A DNA stretch of 64,000 bases from an uncultured Gammaproteobacteria bacterium (GTDB taxonomy: Bacteria; Patescibacteriota; Patescibacteriia; Magasanikbacterales; UBA922), in contig CAYFPJ010000006.1 in NCBI GenBank assembly GCA_964344965.1, positions 568 through 64,567 on the forward strand, read 5' to 3'. The translations under genes were made by a program, and so were the position numbers. Below, piece by piece: positions 4,017 through 60,120 of the stretch. Numbering within the stretch: position 1 is the stretch's first letter; each line of letters begins with the position of its first letter. The notes under the pieces are model-generated. The model did no database searches. It saw only the letters and a list, made by a program, of their open reading frames with translations, and was not told the DNA's origin.

Positions 4017-4049
4017 GTTAGGCGATGTATTTTTATAATCATTTTTCAA
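4017..4049. repeat. Left arm of a 33-bp inverted repeat flanking the 4050-4611 cassette
   Basis: GTTAGGCGATGTATTTTTATAATCATTTTTCAA is the reverse complement of 4612-4645 (TTGAAAAATGATTATAAAAATATTTCGCCTAAC) with 2 mismatches. Confidence 0.7.
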
Positions 4050-4072
4050 TATCAAATAACAAAGAAAACTTT

Positions 4073-4565
4073 TTATTTTTGCCCTTGGATTTGTTGCAGA
4101 CTTTCATAGAACCTCTGCTTGGCCGTACTAATAATCTCCATGCCTTTCATTATTTTTGCCAAACTTTCGGGGTCAGCACTGTACTTAGAGATGACGCGCT
4201 CTAAATCGGGATAGTGTGATCTCGCATCGTGTGCAATGTGGTGGTCAATATAGAGTCGAGCAAATCCTTTTTGGCGGCGTTGTCCACTACCATCGCTCGG
4301 ATTGGTCACGAACTCAGCAGGAAATTTCCTGCGCCTTTTCAATACCAGCCTTGAGTAATTCCTCGAAATGACGAGCCGCCAAATATCGCTGTTTAGCGAA
4401 TTCACGCCATTCATCTTGTGTAAGATTTCCGCTCTCGACAGCCTCTAACACAGGGTTATCAATCATCCTTTCGGTGATTTCTCTAAGGCGTGAATGGATT
4501 TGCTCGAGTCCAGCCTCAGCTTGCTCGATGTGAGCGCCATCTCGCGGTCCATCTGGATTAGTCAT
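4073..4565 (-). pseudogene. hypothetical protein split by an apparent frameshift (ORFs 4314..4565 and 4073..4414 overlap by 100 nt); GC-richer than its surroundings
   Basis: The upstream ORF ends ...EELLKAGIEKAQEISC* and the downstream frame continues KFPAEFVTNPSDGSG...IDHHIAHDARSHYPDLERVISKY.... The frame change falls at about 4320-4335, in GAAATTTCCTGC. The locus is flanked by a 33-bp IR pair. Confidence 0.4.
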
Positions 4566-4611
4566 AAATCTTTGTTTAGTGGTAGCAAAAATAAAAAGTT
4601 TTCCTCGTTAT

Positions 4612-4645
4612 TTGAAAAATGATTATAAAAATATTTCGCCTAACT
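4612..4645. repeat. Right arm of the 33-bp inverted repeat flanking the 4050-4611 cassette
   Basis: Reverse complement of 4017-4049 with 31/33 identity. Confidence 0.7.
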
Positions 4646-17343: not shown

Positions 17344-17352
17344 ATTGTTATG

Positions 17353-17432
17353 TGCGAAATTACGAAAGGTACGAAATATACGAAAATAAATAATTTAGTT
17401 CGTATATTTCGTACTGTTCGTATCTTCGTACA
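17353..17432. promoter_or_regulatory. Long palindrome built from 9-bp-spaced TACGAA/TTCGTA repeats (candidate operator or bidirectional terminator)
   Basis: Perfect 16-bp IR GTACGAAATATACGAA (17369-17384) pairs with TTCGTATATTTCGTAC (17399-17414) across a 14-nt loop. It is extended by further TACGAAA / TTCGTA repeats, with TACGAA recurring 3 times on the left arm and TTCGTA 4 times on the right. Related ATTCGTG / ATTCGCA repeats occur at 16518-16542. Confidence 0.5.
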
Positions 17433-17436
17433 TGAT

Positions 17437-22123: not shown

Positions 22124-23635
22124 ATGAAAAAAACATTCTACATAACAACCACACTGCCATATGTAAATGCAGATCCACATATTGGTTTTGCATTAGAAAT
22201 TATCCAGGCTGATGCCATTGCCAGATATCACACCCTTCTCGGTGAAGAGGTTGTGTTCAATACAGGTACAGATGAGCATGGCCTCAAAATTTATCGTAAG
22301 GCAGAAGAGAGGGGGATCACACCACAAGCATATTGTGACGAGTATGCAGCTAAGTTTGATGCTCTCAAGGATGCCCTAAATTTGAGCTATACCAAGTTTG
22401 TCCGCACTACTGATAAGCATCATGTCGTGGCTGCTCAAGAATTTTGGAAACTGTGTGATGCTAGTGGGGATATTTACAAGAAAAATTATAAAATAAAATA
22501 CTGTGTGGGCTGCGAACTTGAAAAAACTGATTCAGAACTGGTAGACGACAAATGTCCAATTCATCCAACATATGAATTGGAGCAAATTGACGAAGAAAAT
22601 TATTTCTTTAGATTTTCTGCTTACCAAGATAAGCTCCTGGAGCTTTACAAAAGAGAGGATTTCATTATTCCAAAAAATCGATCCACAGAGATAGCCAATT
22701 TTGTCAAAAATGGTCTGCAGGATTTCAGTATTTCGAGACTGAAAGAAAAAATGCCTTGGGGTGTGTCAGTACCAGGGGATGATGAGCATGTGATGTACGT
22801 TTGGTTCGATGCTCTTGTGAATTATATATCCACTATTGGCTGGCCAGACAACAAACAAGAATTTGAGAAAAATTGGCCTGGAGTGCAGGTGGCAGGTAAA
22901 GATAATTTGCGTCAACAAAGTGCCATGTGGCAAGCTATGCTGCTTTCTGCTGGGCTTGATCCATCAAGGCAGATTTTCATCCACGGTTTCATCAGCTCTG
23001 AGGGGCAAAAAATGAGCAAAAGTATTGGAAATGTCGTGGCACCCTATGAAGTGGTAGAAAAGTATGGTACTGATGCTGTTAGGTTTTATTTACTGGGAGC
23101 TTTACCTAGTTATGATGACGGAGATTGGTCCAAGAAAAGATTTGAAGAATTTTATACAGCCCATCTTGCCAATGGAGTGGGGAATTTGACAAGTCGGATA
23201 CTGACGATGTTGGAGAAGTATTGTAATGGTGTGGTGTCAGAGATGAACAAGACAGCAGACAACAGGCAACAGACAGCAGATTTTTGGGGGCAGTATACTG
23301 AAGCATTGACAAAGTATAATTTTGAAGAGTCGGTCAGTCTTGTTAATGGATTAGTTGGGCAATTGGATGGAGTTATTTCAGAACAAAAACCATGGGAAAA
23401 GGCAAAAGCTGGTGAAGATATTTCTGGACTACTATATCAGCTTGCCGAAGGGTTGCGTCACCTTGGCTTAGCTTTATTGCCAATAATTCCAGAAACAGCT
23501 GAGAAAATTTTGTATAGCTTGGGAATTGATGTAGATAATTTGGAAGATTTGGAAGTGGAGAAAGAGTGGGGGAGGCTGGAGCCGGGAACAAAGATTAAAA
23601 AAGGTGATATGTTGTTTCCGAGATTAGAGGCATAA
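22124..23635 (+). CDS. metG: methionine--tRNA ligase
   Basis: Core MetRS motifs P-Y-V-N-A-D-P-H-I-G, KMSKS (KMSKSIGN) and the anticodon-binding domain. There is no C-terminal tRNA-binding extension. Confidence 0.92.
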   Translation: MKKTFYITTTLPYVNADPHIGFALEIIQADAIARYHTLLGEEVVFNTGTDEHGLKIYRKAEERGITPQAYCDEYAAKFDALKDALNLSYTKFVRTTDKHHVVAAQEFWKLCDASGDIYKKNYKIKYCVGCELEKTDSELVDDKCPIHPTYELEQIDEENYFFRFSAYQDKLLELYKREDFIIPKNRSTEIANFVKNGLQDFSISRLKEKMPWGVSVPGDDEHVMYVWFDALVNYISTIGWPDNKQEFEKNWPGVQVAGKDNLRQQSAMWQAMLLSAGLDPSRQIFIHGFISSEGQKMSKSIGNVVAPYEVVEKYGTDAVRFYLLGALPSYDDGDWSKKRFEEFYTAHLANGVGNLTSRILTMLEKYCNGVVSEMNKTADNRQQTADFWGQYTEALTKYNFEESVSLVNGLVGQLDGVISEQKPWEKAKAGEDISGLLYQLAEGLRHLGLALLPIIPETAEKILYSLGIDVDNLEDLEVEKEWGRLEPGTKIKKGDMLFPRLEA

Positions 23636-23695
23636 AAGGATTCCCGGCGAAAGCCGGGTTAGTGCTCACCCGGCTTTCGCCGGGAATCCTTTTTC
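23636..23695 (+). terminator. Hairpin repeat family B/C acting as the metG terminator
   Basis: GGATTCCCGGCGAAAGCCGGG...CCCGGCTTTCGCCGGGAATCC is a perfect roughly 20-bp IR, followed by TTTTTC. Confidence 0.8.
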
Positions 23696-25934: not shown

Positions 25935-26243
25935 GTGAGCATCAATGTTGTAAAAAGTAGAAAAATTATGAATTATCAATCAGATCGCCAGATGTTTGAT
26001 GTAGACGTAGATTGTGGAGAATGTGGTACTAAGATCACCCAACTTCCTTTCCAACCATCTGGAGACCGACCTGTATTTTGTTCAAACTGTCTTCGCGCTC
26101 GTAGAAGTGAGAGAAGAGAAAGACGTATGTTTGACGTAGATGTAGATTGTGCTGAATGTGGTATCAAGATCACTCAGCTTCCTTTCGAACCATCAGGTGA
26201 CCGTCCAATTTATTGTTTTGATTGCAATAAGAATCGCAGATAA
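25935..26243 (+). CDS. tandem double zinc-ribbon protein (internal 41-aa duplication, CxxC-x17-CxxC twice)
   Basis: MFDVDVDCGECGTKITQLPFQPSGDRPVFCSNC is followed by MFDVDVDCAECGIKITQLPFEPSGDRPIYCFDC. The probable start is MNYQSD at 25968. Confidence 0.5.
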   Translation: MSINVVKSRKIMNYQSDRQMFDVDVDCGECGTKITQLPFQPSGDRPVFCSNCLRARRSERRERRMFDVDVDCAECGIKITQLPFEPSGDRPIYCFDCNKNRR

Positions 26244-26259
26244 ATTTATCTGAAATTTC

Positions 26260-26286
26260 AAAACCCCGACTAGTTCGGGGTTTTTT
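26260..26286 (+). terminator. Rho-independent terminator
   Basis: CCCCGA-CTAG-TTCGGGG followed by TTTTTTG. Confidence 0.75.
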
Positions 26287-26296
26287 GTGTGTAAAA

Positions 26297-26390
26297 TTAG
26301 GAAATAGAACGCGGATTTAACGGATTGGACGGATCAAAACAGATCCATTCAAATCTATTTAATCCGTGTCATCTGTGTTCTATTTCCTAA
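26297..26390. repeat. MITE-like element, family 2, copy 1 (TIR TTAGGAAATAGAAC / GTTCTATTTCCTAA)
   Basis: 14-bp perfect terminal inverted repeats around an interior carrying ATCCATT...AATCCGTGT. A second copy is at 47832-47936. Confidence 0.7.
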
Positions 26391-26396
26391 AATAAT

Positions 26397-27278
26397 TTAT
26401 TCTCCAGTTATTAGGCAAGTTACTGCCCCTTCTATTTTATAGTCAGAGCTTATAGCCTTCTTTAGACCAGCAATAGAAAGAGCACTATTTGGTGAAATGG
26501 TAATATTTGTATTTCTTTTTACTATATCTATGGCTGCCGTAATTTGATCATTATTTACAATCCATCCCGAGCCACTAGTGGATTTGATAGCCTCTATTAC
26601 CTCTGCTTTTCTGTGAGAAACATTATCCACTATTGCTCCAGCCAACGAACTCTCTTCCTTAGATATCTGGTCAAACTCTTCAGCTATAGGATGACAAGTG
26701 GTAGTCTGGACAATATGGATTTGAATAGGATTTTCCAACTTGAGAAATTGCTCTCCCAAGGCCTGAGCTGTAGTACCACTAGAAGTAGGGATGAATACAG
26801 CTCGTAGATCTGGTATTTTTTCCAGATCTTTTGCCAGCTCCATATAGCCTTCCAGAGCTAGAGGGTCAGTGGACTGGCGAAGATGTTTTGCTTCAGCATT
26901 TTTATCCATTTGAAAGGCTATCTGTTTTGGCCTCTCGACTTGTTCAATTGATATATCTTTATCTTTTATTTCTCTATTTAATTTACTTAATTTTTTATTA
27001 CTAATTTTTTTACCAACCAAAACTCGCAATCTGATTTTATTTTCAGGATTATTTTTATTATGTTTATTGGTTGCTAGAATAGCAGCAAGCGCTGCATTTC
27101 CAGAAGAAGAAATCACAAAATCGCGAAAACCATCACGCTTGAAATATGTCTTGATCATGTAGGGAATGGACCTACCCTTGTGAGAACCATACTTGTGCAA
27201 GTCCTCGCGTTTCAGATATAGATTGTCTATCCCGAGAGCTTGAGCTAGATCGGGATAGGATTGTTGGGGGGTTTTCAT
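26397..27278 (-). CDS. PLP-dependent enzyme, fold type II (tryptophan synthase beta / threonine synthase-like superfamily)
   Basis: KREDLHKYGSHKGRS matches the PALP lysine motif K-x-E-x-x-N-P-x-x-S-F-K-D-R. Glycine-rich SSGNAAL and SSGTTAQAL loops are present. Confidence 0.55.
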   Translation of the reverse strand: MKTPQQSYPDLAQALGIDNLYLKREDLHKYGSHKGRSIPYMIKTYFKRDGFRDFVISSSGNAALAAILATNKHNKNNPENKIRLRVLVGKKISNKKLSKLNREIKDKDISIEQVERPKQIAFQMDKNAEAKHLRQSTDPLALEGYMELAKDLEKIPDLRAVFIPTSSGTTAQALGEQFLKLENPIQIHIVQTTTCHPIAEEFDQISKEESSLAGAIVDNVSHRKAEVIEAIKSTSGSGWIVNNDQITAAIDIVKRNTNITISPNSALSIAGLKKAISSDYKIEGAVTCLITGE

Positions 27279-27412: not shown

Positions 27413-27580
27413 ATGAAACTAACTTGTCCAGAATGTAAAAATGATGTAGATCTTACTCCATATCCTGATTTGAAAAAAGATCAAGTCATCGAATGTGGGA
27501 TGTGTGGGATTACTCTTCTTGTTACCGAAATATCTGACAGCGGAGATGTTCTAACTGAAATTGTAGATGAGGGGAAATAG
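27413..27580 (+). CDS. LysW-like small zinc-ribbon protein (55 aa; below the ORF-track size cutoff)
   Basis: MKLTCPECKNDVDLTPYPDLKKDQVIECGMCGITLLVTEISDSGDVLTEIVDEGK. The CPEC...x17...CGMCG spacing and acidic C-terminus match LysW/ArgW-type carrier proteins. Confidence 0.4.
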   Translation: MKLTCPECKNDVDLTPYPDLKKDQVIECGMCGITLLVTEISDSGDVLTEIVDEGK

Positions 27581-27581
27581 A

Positions 27582-27615
27582 CAGCTAGTAAGCAATAAGC
27601 AGAATAAGCTGTAGG
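27582..27615. repeat. Left 34-bp inverted repeat flanking the four-helix-bundle gene
   Basis: CAGCTAGTAAGCAATAAGCAGAATAAGCTGTAGG is the reverse complement of 27996-28029 with 33/34 identity. Confidence 0.8.
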
Positions 27616-27617
27616 CA

Positions 27618-27986
27618 TTAAGTAAATTTTTTTTGGCTTTGTATCCATCTTGTTAATAATTTGCCTACTTCTTCAGTACTCGAAAGAGTACTTTTGTATT
27701 GTTCTCGTGTAATATAATTTAGGTCTCGCATGAGCAAAATATGATATTTTAATTCTTCTAAGGATGCATCTGCTTGATTATAAAAACGAATACTATCCTT
27801 TATACTTTGTCTCCTAAAACCTTCCACAATATTTGCCGGTATTGAAGCGGCAGCTCTACGTGCCTGACTAGTTAGACCAAACAGTTCATGTTTAGGATTT
27901 TGTTCAGTCAGTTTGTATATTAGTAAAACATTTCTATGAGCCTTTTGCCACACAAGTAAATCTTTAAAAGTTTGAATTCCTCCCAT
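27618..27986 (-). CDS. four-helix-bundle protein (family typically found inside 23S rRNA intervening sequences)
   Basis: FKDLLVWQKAHRNVLLIYKLTEQNPKHELFGLTSQARRAAASIPANIVEG is the hallmark of this family (described under TIGR02436). Confidence 0.85.
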   Translation of the reverse strand: MGGIQTFKDLLVWQKAHRNVLLIYKLTEQNPKHELFGLTSQARRAAASIPANIVEGFRRQSIKDSIRFYNQADASLEELKYHILLMRDLNYITREQYKSTLSSTEEVGKLLTRWIQSQKKFT

Positions 27987-27995
27987 ATAAAATTG

Positions 27996-28029
27996 CTTAC
28001 AGCTTATTCTGCTTATTGCTTACTAGCTG
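27996..28029. repeat. Right 34-bp inverted repeat flanking the four-helix-bundle gene; it overlaps the last codons of the mpl/murC-like gene
   Basis: CTTACAGCTTATTCTGCTTATTGCTTACTAGCTG. The ligase C-terminus (VQLVSNKQNKL*) is encoded by the repeat. Confidence 0.8.
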
Positions 28030-29415
28030 GACGAACTGTTTTATCATTCCTCTGAATCCATGACTTCCCAAGAAGGCGACAACATCGCCTTTTTCTGTTT
28101 TTTTTTGTAAAAATTCTACCAATTCTTCATCATCTGGAATGAACTTTACATCTTTGTGAGTCTTTTTGATCACTTCAGCTAATTCCTGCCCATTGAGAGG
28201 GGTGGGAGTGTCTGGAGCACGTTTTATTCTTGAGAGTCTTGGTATTACCACTGTATCAGCATTGACAAATTTGTCGTCATATCCTGGGATAGCCTCTGGT
28301 AAGCGATTGCCAGAGTTTGGCTCATATATTGCAATGATTTTATTTTTATAAACTTCACGCAGAGTTCGCAAAACCCCTTCGGCTTTTTTGGGAGAGTGGG
28401 CGATGTCGTCAAACACTGTAATCTCACCATCCGATCTTTTTTCTAGACGACGTTTGATATTTTTGAAAGTTTTTATTGATTTGATAATATCCTCTGGCTT
28501 CATACCAATCTGGTGACACATAGCAAAGCATCCGACCATCTTGTCAACTAAGTAATCTCCAAGTGAATCTGTACTTGCTGACCAAGATTGATCTCCATGG
28601 ACAATGTCAAAGGTCATGCCATCAGTAGAGGCTTGATAGTTAGTAAAGTAGTAGTCATTATCTTCGCTGTGTCCATAAGTGATTACTTTACACTTTGCCA
28701 AATTTTTCATTTCAGGATGCTGAGTTGTCACTTTGGCAGATAAGACTAGCAGACCATCCTCTGAGACTTCTTGAACTAATTTTTCAAAAGCCTCTTTGTA
28801 AGATTCTGGAGTAGGGTAGACATCAGCATGGTCCCAGACCACTGCTGTCAGGAGAAGGTGAGTAGGGGAGTAGTGGGCAAATTTAGGCCTGTTATCCCAG
28901 CGAGCTGTCTTGTATTCGTCACCCTCGACAATACTCCAATCACTTTCAGAAAGTACTGCAGCAGGAATATCATTTAAGCCAACCCCACCAAACATATAAT
29001 TTGGATCCCAACCATTTTCCAACATGATCCAGGAGAGGAGGGAAGCACTAGTCGATTTGCCGTATGTTCCAGCGCAAACTATGGAATTCTTTTGGATCAA
29101 ATGTTCAGCTAGAGCTTCTGGATATGATTTATAAGGAATATTATTTTCTTGTATATAGAGCCATTCTGGATTTTTTGATCCAGCGACATTGCCAACAATG
29201 ACTAAATCCGGGTTTCCATCTTTGGTCATTAACTCTGGGTGCCAGCCTGGGTAGTAGGAAACACCTGTTTCCTTGAGGTAAGTAGAAACTGGAGGATAAA
29301 ATCCTTTGTCTGATCCTGTTACTTTATAACCTTTTTTGTGAAATGCCAAAGCAAGGGCTGACATGGCGACGCCGCAGATGCCGATGAAGTGGATAGACTT
29401 TTTTTTATTGAGCAT
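27997..29415 (-). CDS. Mur ligase family: UDP-N-acetylmuramate:L-alanyl-gamma-D-glutamyl-meso-DAP ligase (Mpl)-like / MurC-like
   Basis: N-terminal IHFIGICGVAMSALALAFHKKGYKVTGSDKGFYPPVSTYL matches MurC/Mpl. The P-loop GTYGKSTSASLL is present. Confidence 0.8.
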   Translation of the reverse strand: MLNKKKSIHFIGICGVAMSALALAFHKKGYKVTGSDKGFYPPVSTYLKETGVSYYPGWHPELMTKDGNPDLVIVGNVAGSKNPEWLYIQENNIPYKSYPEALAEHLIQKNSIVCAGTYGKSTSASLLSWIMLENGWDPNYMFGGVGLNDIPAAVLSESDWSIVEGDEYKTARWDNRPKFAHYSPTHLLLTAVVWDHADVYPTPESYKEAFEKLVQEVSEDGLLVLSAKVTTQHPEMKNLAKCKVITYGHSEDNDYYFTNYQASTDGMTFDIVHGDQSWSASTDSLGDYLVDKMVGCFAMCHQIGMKPEDIIKSIKTFKNIKRRLEKRSDGEITVFDDIAHSPKKAEGVLRTLREVYKNKIIAIYEPNSGNRLPEAIPGYDDKFVNADTVVIPRLSRIKRAPDTPTPLNGQELAEVIKKTHKDVKFIPDDEELVEFLQKKTEKGDVVAFLGSHGFRGMIKQFVQLVSNKQNKL

Positions 29416-29763: not shown

Positions 29764-29788
29764 TTGTTAGGTTATGTAACTGAATACT
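29764..29788. repeat. Left 25-bp inverted repeat flanking the GNAT gene (overlaps its last 5 codons)
   Basis: TTTGTTAGGTTATGTAACTGAATAC is the reverse complement of 30236-30260 (GTATTCAGTTATTTAACCTAACAA) with 23/25 identity. Confidence 0.65.
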
Positions 29789-30227
29789 CCAATACGATTA
29801 TGGGTATTTTTACACCTTTTCTTTCTACAAATTTATCCATTATTTTTTCGAAGCCATATTTTTCATAAAAGCTTTGGGCATTGAGAGTAGATTCAACCTT
29901 AACTTTCTTCACCTCTTTGCTTGCAATTCTTAAGGCTTGGTCAAATAATTCCTTCCCAATTCCTCTTTCTTGAAATTCTGGATCTACAAAAATTCGGACT
30001 ATTTCTCCCTTCTTGGCCTGACCAAACCCCATGATATTATCATTCTCTTCAAAAACAAATATTTCTTCTTTTTTCATCCCTTCTTCATAAGTATCTGATG
30101 AGAGATCATCAACCCAAACCTTCATTTGTTCATCTGTATAAAAATTTTTGGAGCCAACTAACAAAGCTTTTCTATGAATTGCCCAAAGCTTTGATGAATC
30201 CTTGGCTGATGCAATTCTAATACCCAT
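29772..30227 (-). CDS. GNAT family N-acetyltransferase
   Basis: Acetyl-CoA binding motif IFVDPEFQERGIGKEL (Q/RxxGxG/A). Confidence 0.85.
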   Translation of the reverse strand: MGIRIASAKDSSKLWAIHRKALLVGSKNFYTDEQMKVWVDDLSSDTYEEGMKKEEIFVFEENDNIMGFGQAKKGEIVRIFVDPEFQERGIGKELFDQALRIASKEVKKVKVESTLNAQSFYEKYGFEKIMDKFVERKGVKIPIIVLEYSVT

Positions 30228-30235
30228 AATTGTAT

Positions 30236-30260
30236 GTATTCAGTTATTTAACCTAACAAT
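30236..30260. repeat. Right inverted repeat flanking the GNAT gene
   Basis: See 29764-29788. Confidence 0.65.
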
Positions 30261-39445: not shown

Positions 39446-39466
39446 AGTATTTTTTGTTATTAATAA

Positions 39467-39591
39467 ACGTCATCTCGACCGAAAGTCTGATGAAATACAG
39501 ACTGGAGTGGAGAGATCTAGTTGTTTTAAATAAAAACCATGAGATCTCTCCACTTCGTCCCTCCTTCGTCAGGACTGCGGTCGAGATGACA
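39467..39591. repeat. MITE-like palindromic element, copy 3 (intergenic, 125 bp, near-perfect palindrome)
   Basis: ACGTCATCTCGACCG...GGAGTGGAGAGATCT...AGATCTCTCCACT...CGGTCGAGATGAC. It has 13-bp TIRs plus an internal 15-bp IR. Confidence 0.85.
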
Positions 39592-39684
39592 TTTGCTTAA
39601 TTATTATCCACACTTGTGTTAAGTAAACTTTGTTCCTATACTTAATTCATACGTGAATAATTTATTAAATCATACCATTTTTGT

Positions 39685-45915: not shown

Positions 45916-46335
45916 ATGAAAACAGTCCTCATTACTGGCACCTTCGATATTCTCCATCTTGGTCATATATACTTTTTCAAACAAGCTAGAGAATATGGTG
46001 ATAATCTTCACGTCATAATAGCAAGAGATAGTAATGTTGAGAAAATAAAAGGTCACAAACCCGTAAACACAGAGGATGAAAGATTAGATCTATTATCTTA
46101 TGTCAAATTAGTTGATAAAGTTATCCTCGGTGATGAAGACAATCCTTACAAATATATTGAAGAATTACAGCCAGACGTGATAGCACTCGGCTATGATCAA
46201 AATGTCTTTGTAGATAAGTTAGAAAATTTTTTAAAAGAGAAAAATATTGATGCTGAGATTGTCAGATTGAAACCACATCGAGAAGATAGGTTAAAGAGCG
46301 GGAGGATTAAGGATTATATTGAAAGTAATATCTAA
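45916..46335 (+). CDS. cytidylyltransferase-like nucleotidyltransferase (HxGH family; RibL/TagD-like)
   Basis: VLITGTFDILHLGHIYFF contains the (T/H)xGH nucleotide-binding motif. Its 139-aa size fits single-domain cytidylyl/adenylyl-transferases. Confidence 0.75.
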   Translation: MKTVLITGTFDILHLGHIYFFKQAREYGDNLHVIIARDSNVEKIKGHKPVNTEDERLDLLSYVKLVDKVILGDEDNPYKYIEELQPDVIALGYDQNVFVDKLENFLKEKNIDAEIVRLKPHREDRLKSGRIKDYIESNI

Positions 46336-46368
46336 CACAGATTACAGGGATTTTATTGGATTACACAG
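46335..46368. repeat. Left inverted repeat of the GxxExxY cassette, copy 1
   Basis: ACACAGATTACAGGGATTTTATTGGATTACACAG is the reverse complement of 46771-46799 with 28/29 identity. Confidence 0.75.
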
Positions 46369-46380
46369 AAAAAAAACAAT

Positions 46381-46773
46381 ATGCTAAAGGAGGTAGATTT
46401 AACAAGAGAAATAATTGGGATAGCAATGAAAGTACACGGAGAACTTGGTCCTGGATTTAAAGAAGTGATCTATCATCAAGCCATGTTGTCCGATTTGATT
46501 GAGAATGATTTTGATGTAGAAACAGAAGTGGAATTTGATGTAATTTACAAAAATAAAATAATTGGTATATTTAGAATTGATCTATTGGTAAATAAAAAAG
46601 TATTAATAGAGCTAAAGGCAATAAGCGGTGAGATACCTAAAATATTTAAATCACAAGTTGTCTCTTATTTGAAAGCAAGTAATTTGGAAGTTGGTCTACT
46701 GCTTAATTTTGGAAACCCAAGTCTTGAAATAAAACGATTTGGAAACTACAAAGACTATAAAAGATCAGTGTAA
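46381..46773 (+). CDS. GxxExxY family protein, copy 1
   Basis: 130 aa with GIAMKVHGELGPGFKEVIYHQA (G-x-x-E-x-x-Y) and ...IDLLVNKKVLIELKA. It is 126/130 identical to the copy at 59671..60063. Confidence 0.8.
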   Translation: MLKEVDLTREIIGIAMKVHGELGPGFKEVIYHQAMLSDLIENDFDVETEVEFDVIYKNKIIGIFRIDLLVNKKVLIELKAISGEIPKIFKSQVVSYLKASNLEVGLLLNFGNPSLEIKRFGNYKDYKRSV

Positions 46774-46799
46774 TCCAATAAAATCCTTGTAATCTGTGT
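46771..46799. repeat. Right inverted repeat of the GxxExxY cassette, copy 1; it abuts the ATG of the next gene
   Basis: TAATCCAATAAAATCCTTGTAATCTGTGT. Confidence 0.75.
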
Positions 46800-47819
46800 A
46801 TGAATAGACTCCTCATTGCCACAACCAACCAAGGAAAGCTAAAAGAGATCAAACATTTTTTAGCAGATTTACCATTTGAAATTATTGGACTGTCTGATCT
46901 TGATAAAGAATATGACGAACCAGAAGAAACAGAAGAGACCTTGATGGGAAATTCTGTGCTGAAAGCAAAGTACTATGGAGAAAAGACAGGCCTAATTTCA
47001 CTAGCTGATGATACTGGATTATTTTGTCACGGTCTTGATAACTGGCCTGGAGTTCGTGCCGCAAGGGTAGCGAAGACAGATGACGAACGCTGCCTAGCTC
47101 TCTTAGAAAAAATGAATGGAATAAAAGACAGATCAGCATCATTCAGGTCTGGAATTTCGATTTATGACCCAAACACCAAATCAACATTTTTTACATTGGG
47201 AGAATTGCATGGTGAAATTCTGACTGAAATGCCTGGTGAGAGAAAAAATGGATTTTGTTATGATCCACTTTTTTTCCTAAAAGAATTTGGCAAAACAACA
47301 GACGAGTTGGAAACTGTCGAAAAAAATGCAATTAGCCATCGCGGCAAAGCATTGGTAAAAACAAAATACTTTCTCCAAAATCAGTACAGTGCTAAGCACA
47401 TTGTCGTTCCAATTGCTCTCATTATCCAAGATGGAAAAATTCTGATGCACAAACGCAACGATCCTCATCGACCAGACTACCACGGCAAGTGGGAATTTCC
47501 CGGTGGGACGATGGAATTTGGAGAATCATTTGAAGAAAATATAATTCGTGAAACCAGAGAAGAAGCTGGATATGATGTGGAAGTAATAAAAAAGTTAGAT
47601 CACACAGCTGTCGAAAATCAAGAATTGCCAACTTTTCAATATCAAGTCTATCTAGTACCATTTCTTTGTAAGATTATTGGTGGAGAAGGGGAGTATAGTG
47701 ACGCTGAAGTGATGGAGCAGAGATGGTTTGAGCTTGATGATGTGGTCAATCATGATTTGATTGGGGAGAATCGGAGGATGTTTGAGAAACTCTTATCAGA
47801 GCTAAAGGAGAGTATTTAA
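46800..47819 (+). CDS. fusion protein: non-canonical purine NTP pyrophosphatase (RdgB/Ham1) N-domain plus Nudix hydrolase C-domain
   Basis: RdgB-like LLIATTNQGKLKEIKHFL...DTGLFCHGLDNWPGVRAARVA. C-terminal Nudix box GKWEFPGGTMEFGESFEENIIRETREEAGYDV. Confidence 0.8.
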   Translation: MNRLLIATTNQGKLKEIKHFLADLPFEIIGLSDLDKEYDEPEETEETLMGNSVLKAKYYGEKTGLISLADDTGLFCHGLDNWPGVRAARVAKTDDERCLALLEKMNGIKDRSASFRSGISIYDPNTKSTFFTLGELHGEILTEMPGERKNGFCYDPLFFLKEFGKTTDELETVEKNAISHRGKALVKTKYFLQNQYSAKHIVVPIALIIQDGKILMHKRNDPHRPDYHGKWEFPGGTMEFGESFEENIIRETREEAGYDVEVIKKLDHTAVENQELPTFQYQVYLVPFLCKIIGGEGEYSDAEVMEQRWFELDDVVNHDLIGENRRMFEKLLSELKESI

Positions 47820-47831
47820 AAAACACACAAA

Positions 47832-47936
47832 TTAGGAAATGGCACACAGATGACACAGATCTAATGGATTTACACGGATAAAATCTATCAAAATCCATTT
47901 AATCCGTGTGCCGAAGGCCTGTGTTCTATTTCCTAA
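47832..47936. repeat. MITE-like element, family 2, copy 2
   Basis: TTAGGAAAT...ATCCATTTAATCCGTGTG...GTTCTATTTCCTAA. It shares its TIRs and internal blocks with 26297-26390. Confidence 0.65.
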
Positions 47937-47959
47937 TTTAGAAATCTAATAATTTTATT

Positions 47960-55585: not shown

Positions 55586-55680
55586 TCATCCTGAGCGCAG
55601 CGAAGGATCTTTAGTAAGGAAAATATTCTCCAAAGGAAAATATTCTCCATAAGAAATATCCTTCGCTGCGCTCAGGATGA
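55586..55680. other. Large perfect stem-loop (22-23 bp stem, 49-nt loop with internal direct repeats) inside a 570-bp ORF-free region
   Basis: CATCCTGAGCGCAGCGAAGGAT (55587-55608) pairs with ATCCTTCGCTGCGCTCAGGATG (55658-55679). The loop carries GGAAAATATTCTCCA twice. Confidence 0.7.
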
Positions 55681-59641: not shown

Positions 59642-59644
59642 AAA

Positions 59645-59676
59645 ACACAGATTACAAGGATTTTATTGGATTACAC
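59645..59676. repeat. Downstream inverted repeat of the GxxExxY cassette, copy 2
   Basis: ACACAGATTACAAGGATTTTATTGGATTACAC is identical to the reverse complement of the copy-1 right flank 46771-46799. Confidence 0.75.
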
Positions 59677-60063
59677 TGATCTTTTATAGTCTTTATAATT
59701 TCCAAATCGTTTTATTTCAAGACTTGGGTTTCCAAAATTTAACAGTAGTCCGACTTCCAGATTGCTTGCTTTTAAGTAAGAGACTACTTGTGATTTAAAT
59801 ATTTTAGGCATTTCACCACTTATTGCTTTCAACTCTATTAATACTTTCTTATTTACCAATAAATCAATTCTAAATAAACCTATTATTTTGTTTTTGTAAA
59901 TTACATCAAATTCTACCTCTGTTTCTACATCTAAATCATCCTCAATCAAATCGGACAACATGGCTTGATGATAGATCACTTCTTTAAATCCAGGACCAAG
60001 TTCTCCGTGTATTTTCATTGCTATCCCAATTATTTCTCTTGTTAAATCTACCTCCTTTAGCAC
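59671..60063 (-). CDS. GxxExxY family protein, copy 2 (GTG start)
   Basis: 126/130 aa identical to 46381..46773. It sits in the opposite orientation with related flanks. Confidence 0.8.
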   Translation of the reverse strand: MLKEVDLTREIIGIAMKIHGELGPGFKEVIYHQAMLSDLIEDDLDVETEVEFDVIYKNKIIGLFRIDLLVNKKVLIELKAISGEMPKIFKSQVVSYLKASNLEVGLLLNFGNPSLEIKRFGNYKDYKRSV

Positions 60064-60120
60064 ACAAAATTTATTTTCTGTGTAATCTTTTAAAAATCCT
60101 TTAATCTGTGTAAGACTACA
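60064..60120. repeat. Upstream flank of GxxExxY cassette copy 2 (degenerate relative of the copy-1 left IR)
   Basis: The reverse complement contains ACACAGATTAAAGGATTTTTAAAAGATTACACAGAAAATAA, against ACACAGATTACAGGGATTTTATTGGATTACACAGAAAAAAA in copy 1. Confidence 0.55.

Follow-up and report, generated by a model that had tools for sequence, protein, structure and literature searches.

The 64-kb stretch of contig CAYFPJ010000006.1 analysed here (the window; G+C content 37.5%), placed by its best protein matches in a genome of Candidatus Magasanikbacteria (CPR/Patescibacteria), carries at positions 27582-28029 a compact cassette of 448 nt, in which a gene for a 122-residue four-helix-bundle (4HB) protein, assigned by profile search to the 23S_rRNA_IVP family (PF05635/TIGR02436), is framed by a pair of long inverted repeats, referred to below as arms. 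The 4HB gene is located on the minus strand (27618..27986). Upstream of it is a Mur ligase gene (mpl/murC-like, 472 residues, 27997..29415, minus strand), the presumed source of read-through transcription, and on its other side the cassette is bounded by a convergent LysW-like zinc-ribbon open reading frame (ORF) of 55 residues (27413..27580, plus strand); both neighbours were correctly named in the initial annotation of the sequence. Where rRNA intervening sequences (IVSs) and the conserved 4HB ORF that they carry come from, and what purpose they serve, have been open questions since the early 1990s, and the two have been studied almost only in rRNA. The present gene lies outside any rRNA, as had also been noted at the outset: Rfam and ARAGORN searches found no rRNA, tRNA or other Rfam family in the 64-kb window, and the neighbouring genes are protein-coding.

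Architecture of the cassette

A repeat search of the window places the arms at 27582-27617 and 27994-28029; they are 36 nt long each, complementary at 35 of 36 positions (97%) and separated by 376 nt. The 34-nt repeats described initially are its core. A 32-nt probe taken from the arm sequence finds no place in the window other than the two arms themselves, and paired matches occurred in none of 100 shuffled sequences, ruling out a chance origin of the arms. No TAAGC clusters outside the arms, and no second copy of the arms or of the 4HB gene, were found in the 64 kb. Four contigs, originating from no fewer than two ENA samples, carry the identical protein and arrangement, which rules out an assembly artefact.

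In the direction of the minus-strand transcript, the cassette begins with the proximal (5') arm (27994..28029), which consists of TAAGCAR-type units and is common to the 3' end of the ligase gene: it encodes the last ten ligase codons (QLVSNKQNKL) and the stop codon (27997-27999), followed by 3 nt, and the sole mismatch between the arms falls on the third base of that stop codon. A 7-nt spacer (AUUUUAU, 27987..27993, minus strand), too short for a promoter and without a clear Shine-Dalgarno sequence, leads from the arm to the 4HB start codon. The distal (3') arm (27582..27617, minus strand) follows the 4HB stop codon without a gap, and a single nucleotide separates its far end from the LysW-like stop codon. 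No promoter- or terminator-like site was found on the minus strand within or just upstream of the cassette, and its edges (ATAGA/CAGCTAG and CTAGCTG/GACGAA, the slash marking the edge) show no target-site duplication. A long terminal stem around a PF05635 ORF, with a total length of a few hundred nucleotides, is the build of an IVS, and the initial description of the module as IVS-type stands; the defining feature that it lacks is a location in 23S rRNA.

The four-helix-bundle protein

The protein matches PF05635 over residues 8-112 (E = 3.5e-37; 127.3 bits against a cut-off of 33.8) and TIGR02436 with 118.8 bits (cut-off 24), and among solved structures it is closest to 2gsc (E = 2.4e-15) and 2rld. 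The family is characterised by the motif GxxRxxxSxxxNxxE (PMC3936711). R44, S48, N52 and E55 of this motif are present and are invariant or nearly so in the alignment, with Q41 at the position of the motif glycine in this subfamily. Between lineages, the gene is saturated at synonymous sites (proportion of synonymous differences, pS, 0.75-0.82), whilst the non-synonymous proportion (pN) is 0.11-0.14; the protein is under strong purifying selection. That several such cassettes are kept under purifying selection in the small genomes of the candidate phyla radiation (CPR) argues for a real function.

The homologous four-helix-bundle fold of Avd, the accessory protein of diversity-generating retroelements (DGRs), gave weak matches only, both models scoring under their cut-offs (PF22296, 38.9 bits against 40; NF033474, 48.5 bits against 80). 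No reverse transcriptase is present among the genes called within 10 kb on either side (no search for template and variable repeats was made), and an identity as a DGR accessory protein was rejected on these two grounds. PADLOC returned no match for the protein, and membership of a defence system was discarded for that reason.

The same frame around most sampled 4HB genes of other lineages

The surroundings of 4HB genes were sampled in 80 ligase loci of species-representative genomes and in 80 diverse metagenome loci at 45-57% identity; the tested set comprised 92 unique near-full-length 4HB genes and 385 position-shifted controls. The arm score, defined as the best inverted match between 140-nt windows at the gene start and stop, has a median of 31 for the 4HB genes and 16 for the controls, exceeding the 95th percentile of the controls in 79% of the genes and the 99th in 67%. 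Scores above 25 were reached by inverted arms in 62 of the 92 genes, compared with five of 92 in a direct-repeat control.

These 62 strong cassettes are uniform in their dimensions, with a median length of 451 nt (interquartile range 430-495) and a median arm of 33.5 nt; the median gap is 16 nt between the 5' arm and the start codon, and 1 nt between the stop codon and the 3' arm. Short lineage-specific units, GGAGTCA, GGGAGTA, GGATACC and TAAGCAG among them, are repeated in tandem to make up the arms, and a period of 7 is present in 28 of 53 arms. Of 45 strong cassettes, 19 have a 5' arm whose start lies within the upstream gene, and approximately 80% of the 4HB genes are co-oriented with each neighbour. 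No rRNA was found in the 20 loci with the strongest arms. A polarity was also seen, with the purine-rich arm first in 54 of the 62 strong cassettes; it was dropped as strand-specific evidence, since an inverted repeat is identical on both strands and is silent on the orientation of the ORF.

The same layout is present on finished plasmids of cultured organisms, namely Nostoc punctiforme pNPUN01, where the arms are (AGGAGTC/AGAATTC)n, Picosynechococcus PCC 7003, where (AGGAGATA)n arms surround a 4HB gene located between cmr2 and cmr3, Trichormus variabilis plasmid C and Riemerella anatipestifer. 4HB ORFs in rRNA insertions and in cas operons were already known; what appears to be new here is the palindromic frame around 4HB genes outside rRNA. 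Neither a palindromic unit-array frame around such genes nor its sharing with the GxxExxY cassettes described below was found in the part of the literature that was covered.

Cassettes with other cargo

The inverted-repeat scan of the window revealed two further cassettes, at 46335-46800 (plus strand) and 59644-60111 (minus strand; copy B), each with a 130-residue GxxExxY ORF (PF13366/TIGR04256; PDDEXK_3), a protein of the PD-(D/E)XK type, between the same arms of ~35 nt (ACACAGATTACAGGGATTTTATTGGATTACACAGA). Each fills a co-directional stop/start junction that would otherwise overlap, and in copy B the arm encodes the last residues of the upstream gene (HRLKDF-stop). Measured between the outer edges of the arms, the two copies share 91% identity, with differences at 20 synonymous and 6 non-synonymous codons; the sequences that flank them are unrelated (~50% identity). 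Arms bound six of six GxxExxY genes in the examined loci; the same design surrounds most sampled 4HB genes of other lineages and all GxxExxY genes of those loci.

Arm-bounded cassettes also carry a 96-residue GIY-YIG protein (L083, 12001-12566) and an unknown 139-residue protein (L025, 6680-7213), the latter at the PALP/methyltransferase junction, which in L032 is occupied by a 4HB cassette. In the window itself, an inverted pair of ~45 nt (29764-30259; blocks of 24 and 17 nt, 92-94%) encloses the gene that immediately precedes the ligase, which encodes a GNAT acetyltransferase (151 residues). In the relatives L003 and L005 no gene occupies this place, so that the GNAT gene looks like another arm-bounded insertion.

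A co-transcribed stem as proposed processing or occluding signal

In the predicted fold of the whole-region RNA, the 4HB ORF is located in the loop of the arm helix, with the stem kept in both the minimum-free-energy and the centroid structure (z = -5.67). The arm-arm duplex has a predicted energy of -63.6 kcal/mol, compared with -18.9 +/- 3.7 kcal/mol for shuffled sequences; in most lineages the corresponding duplexes lie between -30 and -64 kcal/mol and their shuffled controls between -17 and -30. The arms have been kept complementary despite the saturation of neutral sites, and the non-coding distal arm of the window is identical to that of L013 at ~21 of 22 positions over CTGCTTATTGCTTAC(T/A)AGCTG.

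The element at 27582-28029 is interpreted, with moderate confidence, as an IVS-type palindromic cassette whose co-transcribed stem acts as an RNase III-type processing signal, as a signal that sequesters the ribosome-binding site (RBS), or as both. Read-through transcription from the ligase would carry the promoterless cassette, and in the RNA the arms would pair into a helix of ~36 bp around the ORF, the 4HB start region and the ligase stop codon, which would give the topology that RNase III recognises and cuts in the IVSs of 23S rRNA. Most likely, the helix would serve as a double-strand processing site at which the 4HB and ligase messages are parted, and/or as a clamp over the ribosome-binding region of the 4HB gene. 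Either role would make the cassette tolerable at any landing site, whether an rRNA loop or a gene junction: the helix would insulate host transcripts from the insert, and the abutting gene would obtain a few hydrophilic C-terminal residues and a stop codon from the arm. The helix is taken as a putative processing or RBS-occluding signal because its geometry matches that of the RNase III substrate in the IVSs known from Coxiella, Leptospira and Salmonella (PMC4990558).

The Coxiella 23S IVS is 428-444 nt long, contains the S23p ORF within a 28-bp stem and is cut by RNase III in this stem (PMC4990558). Like it and the Leptospira IVS, the present cassette has a PF05635 ORF, a similar size (448 nt versus 428-444 nt) and an enclosing stem (36 bp versus 28 bp); like the 23S IVSs (PMC4990558), it has no promoter of its own and would be carried in the transcript of its host. 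In contrast to the 23S IVSs, which are located in helix 25 or 45, its host is the 3' end of a protein gene together with a 1-nt gap to a convergent gene, its arms are arrays of short units and one arm doubles as ligase coding sequence and stop codon. Excision by RNase III is known for the Coxiella IVS, whereas for the present cassette it is a proposal, and the 4HB ORF is clearly under purifying selection, unlike the decaying S23p ORF of Coxiella.

Several observations weigh against a role for the stem in RNA. Approximately 20% of the 4HB genes are not co-oriented with their neighbours, and about a third lack strong arms. In L005/L009 the arms have largely decayed (-31 kcal/mol, compared with -24.5 kcal/mol for shuffles) while the ORF is intact, so that the stem is not indispensable. 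A sense-strand excess of G.U-compatible arm mismatches is absent (59 versus 68), unit variants dominating the mismatches, and the sequences carry no positive sign of selection acting on RNA as opposed to DNA. In addition, no RNase III gene was seen in the 64-kb window, and cleavage of the arms is purely inferred.

The arms as possible ends of a mobile DNA unit

A second explanation, possible but clearly less probable, is that the arms are the DNA ends of a non-autonomous mobile element that is moved by a nuclease or recombinase acting in trans, for example the GxxExxY PD-(D/E)XK or GIY-YIG proteins of the sister cassettes, with the RNA stem being incidental. Since the identity of the two GxxExxY cassettes spans the outer arm edges and their flanks are unrelated, the moving unit is defined by its arms. 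The arm units point in the same direction: one Magasanikbacteria 4HB clade (clade A) has TAAGCAG-type arms at three junctions, which are the ligase 3' end, the PALP/methyltransferase junction (L032) and the 3' end of a membrane-protein gene (L070, L041), and a second clade has CAGCAGA-type arms, so that unit type tracks the 4HB clade over three insertion sites. The exception is L031_2666, with TAAGCAG arms at the ligase site and a protein nearer to the second clade. The initial suggestion that the module is mobile is borne out over evolutionary time by the recurrence of the same arm units at three different gene junctions of related genomes. The lack of a sense-strand wobble bias and the varied cargo (4HB, GxxExxY, GIY-YIG, GNAT and unknown) within the same frame would also suit a DNA-level role.

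Against this, the 4HB cassette has neither a visible target-site duplication nor a second copy in the window, 4HB paralogues within one genome are old (69-71% amino acid identity), and the cassette has stayed at the ligase site through synonymous saturation. Movement of the unit by way of its arms at the DNA level would not conflict with the proposed RNA stem, and the GxxExxY pair supports such movement.

Inverted-repeat-bounded units at gene junctions that are co-transcribed with their neighbours are familiar from the Correia elements of Neisseria, which are cut by RNase III, and from the enterobacterial repetitive intergenic consensus (ERIC) sequences; both lack an ORF, occur in many near-identical copies and have target-site duplications. 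The 4HB cassette differs from these miniature inverted-repeat transposable elements (MITEs) in carrying an ORF, in lacking a target-site duplication and in that many near-identical copies were not seen. An identity as a MITE or as an element of the insertion sequence type was rejected, given the absence of a target duplication and of a second copy in the 64 kb searched.

The ligase tail

The arm that overlaps the ligase gene bears on a third explanation, which appears rather unlikely: the hairpin would belong to the host, as a stabiliser or terminator hairpin over the last codons of the ligase, and the 4HB gene would have been inserted into its loop in the way that IVSs occupy rRNA helices. 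ORF-less hairpins with the last ligase codons and stop codon as 5' arm are found in at least seven further lineages (L034, L041, L072, L073, L089, L040 and L057), and the native tail QLVSR(L/V)S of the cassette-free L019 and L020 is itself written in GTAAGCAGA-type units, both of which favour a hairpin that preceded the gene. The solo hairpins are, however, equally explained as cassettes that have lost their ORF, and TAAGCAG arms also flank clade-A cassettes at the two non-ligase junctions. Moreover, the arm sequences around 4HB genes in other phyla are quite different, which would be hard to explain by pre-existing hairpins everywhere.

Ligase orthologues share a conserved end, FLGSHGFRGMI-E-x-L-V-x-x-L-x-x, followed by a tail of varying length. 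In a clustering of more than 80 ligases, the window ligase forms a subclade with those of L005/L009, L010, L015, L019 and L020, the tails of which all start with QLVS; three lineages of the subclade have the cassette, none is present in L019 and L020, and in L015 a run of arm units remains without an ORF. QLVS (CAG CTA GTA AGC) is shared, also in nucleotides, with the cassette-free members (tails QLVSRVSK in L019, QLVSRLSE in L020 and QLVS in L015), and the pattern LVS.L recurs in distant orthologues, written with different codons. The only arm-type part of the window tail is NKQNKL (AAT AAG CAG AAT AAG CTG), and the Mur_ligase_C domain is intact in profile searches. The arm gives the ligase a short tail and its stop codon and leaves the catalytic domains and the native helix intact.

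The initial annotation held that the last nine ligase residues are repeat-encoded and that the repeat had replaced the C-terminal codons of the ligase, to be checked against orthologues. The tail is indeed arm-encoded, over ten codons plus the stop codon rather than nine residues. Replacement agrees with the arm-type NKQNKL, but it conflicts with the conservation of QLVS in relatives that lack the cassette and with the intact Mur_ligase_C domain.

A K-Q-(S/N)-K reading of the arm also terminates unrelated genes, such as the convergent methyltransferase of L032 (..SGKQSKL-stop) and a membrane protein of L041 (..QQSKQSKF-stop), and AGCT(A/T)(G/T)TAAGCA is also present in arms at non-ligase sites of L032 and L047. 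The QLVS segment of the arm may derive from the host, with a copy made into the distal arm, or from the cassette, which would then have integrated where the host sequence was similar. In several ligases the tail (..NKQSKQNK, ..SNKQLKQGKQR) consists of arm units repeated in frame.

Age and inheritance of the cassette

The closest homologues of the 4HB protein (P0122, P0124 and P0125) have 80-83% amino acid identity, and every recovered contig that encodes them has the order ligase, 10-nt gap, 4HB gene, LysW-like ORF (on the opposite strand) and PALP enzyme. Long residence of the cassette follows from the ligases of these lineages being 59-60% identical to that of the window and from the saturation of synonymous sites in the 4HB gene. 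The closest relative of the window ligase (P0002/L003, 67%) has a NUDIX gene at the position of the cassette and a tail (..NKQSKQ..) in arm units; frequent loss of the cassette follows from such NUDIX-bearing relatives and from the empty and remnant ones. The synteny of the LysW-like ORF with the ligase and PALP genes is kept in relatives with and without the cassette. In one subclade of Magasanikbacteria, the cassette has long been established at the 3' end of the ligase gene and has been passed on vertically, with its loss in some lineages. The contrast between 4HB (80-83%) and ligase (~60%) identities might suggest recent horizontal transfer, but this is ruled out by the saturated synonymous sites of the 4HB gene, which is merely the more constrained of the two.

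A recent mobile IVS-like insertion that destroyed and replaced the native ligase C-terminus, as initially proposed, is very unlikely. It would account for the near-perfect arms (35/36), for the arm-type NKQNKL and for the NUDIX gene at the site in the closest ligase relative. The orthologous cassette in lineages with ligases of ~60% identity and saturated synonymous sites in the 4HB gene largely refutes it, and the proposed insertion into a coding region fails if it is taken as a recent event; the QLVS of cassette-free relatives, the complete Mur_ligase_C domain and the variable tail length among orthologues are further points against it. Repeats of this length can in principle support DNA inversion, but inversion sites that flip the 4HB segment are ruled out, with hardly any likelihood remaining, by the constant orientation of the 4HB gene, which is that of the ligase in five of five independent ligase-site lineages and on all recovered contigs, and no recombinase gene is located nearby.

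The LysW-like ORF and the threonine-synthase-like PALP enzyme (26397-27278) are conserved neighbours across Magasanikbacteria. A NUDIX gene is usual between the ligase and the LysW-like ORF in this group and is absent from that position in the window.

Relation to known systems and a possible wider class

Insertions in CPR 16S and 23S rRNA genes encode 23S_rRNA_IVP proteins (PMC11270868). They resemble the present cassettes in belonging to the same radiation and carrying the same family at scattered sites, and GIY-YIG cargo is found both there and in L083; they differ in lying within rRNA genes, and neither flanking inverted arms nor copies outside rRNA are part of that account (PMC11270868). 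4HB genes of the 23S_rRNA_IVP family also interrupt cas operons, an association that has been taken as functional and Cas-related (PMC3936711). Here too, a small 4HB gene is wedged among co-directional operon genes, and the order cmr2-4HB-cmr3 was confirmed in Picosynechococcus PCC 7003; the palindromic frame was not noted in the earlier account (PMC3936711).

These comparisons raise the possibility, which falls short of probable, that rRNA IVSs are the long-known special case of a widespread and undescribed class of palindrome-bounded, promoterless single-gene cassettes. Such cassettes would carry 4HB, GxxExxY PD-(D/E)XK, GIY-YIG or GNAT cargo between lineage-specific arms of mostly heptamer units, would occupy stop/start junctions in Patescibacteria, Cyanobacteria and Bacteroidota, would donate C-terminal residues and stop codons to their neighbours and would move as arm-bounded units, possibly by means of their nuclease-carrying members. 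The 4HB cassette of the window falls within the limits proposed for the class (~120-150 codons; arms of ~20-60 nt abutting start and stop; ~410-520 nt in total; a location at a gene junction).

If the stem-plus-ORF module is common at ordinary gene junctions, its location in rRNA would be incidental, and the module would become open to study in tractable hosts, for example on Nostoc punctiforme pNPUN01 or in the cmr operon of Picosynechococcus PCC 7003. There are consequences for annotation too: where a gene adjoins a cassette, its stop codon and a short hydrophilic tail at its C-terminus can stem from the cassette, and 4HB genes within cas or other operons need not be functionally tied to those operons. 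A single case in the window thus opens onto a broad and apparently undescribed pattern.

Other inverted repeats in the window

Two imperfect hairpins of ~100 nt without an ORF (26290-26392 and 47824-47937) share their outer ends (AAATTAGGAAAT.GAAC ... GTTCTATTTCCTAA) and contain inner ACGGATT/CACAGAT units. Their sequences resemble the arms of the GxxExxY cassettes of L042, and they may be solo or MITE-like derivatives. Close to the first of them, a 102-residue ORF with two tandem treble-clef zinc fingers (25935-26243; PF23477) is followed by a hairpin that resembles an intrinsic terminator (~26262-26288).

A 628-nt segment (4017-4644) has inverted arms of 66 nt (blocks of 33 and 31 nt, 94%) and an internal inverted pair of 18 nt; within it, only short overlapping ORFs and no Rfam match were found. 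Long near-perfect hairpins with loops of 1-5 nt are located at gene ends (55586-55680, 39459-39601, 23634-23693 and 17350-17433). The hairpin motif GTCATCCTGAGCG..GAAGGATC and its relatives are present at many Magasanikbacteria loci, such as L063, L071, L072 and L083.

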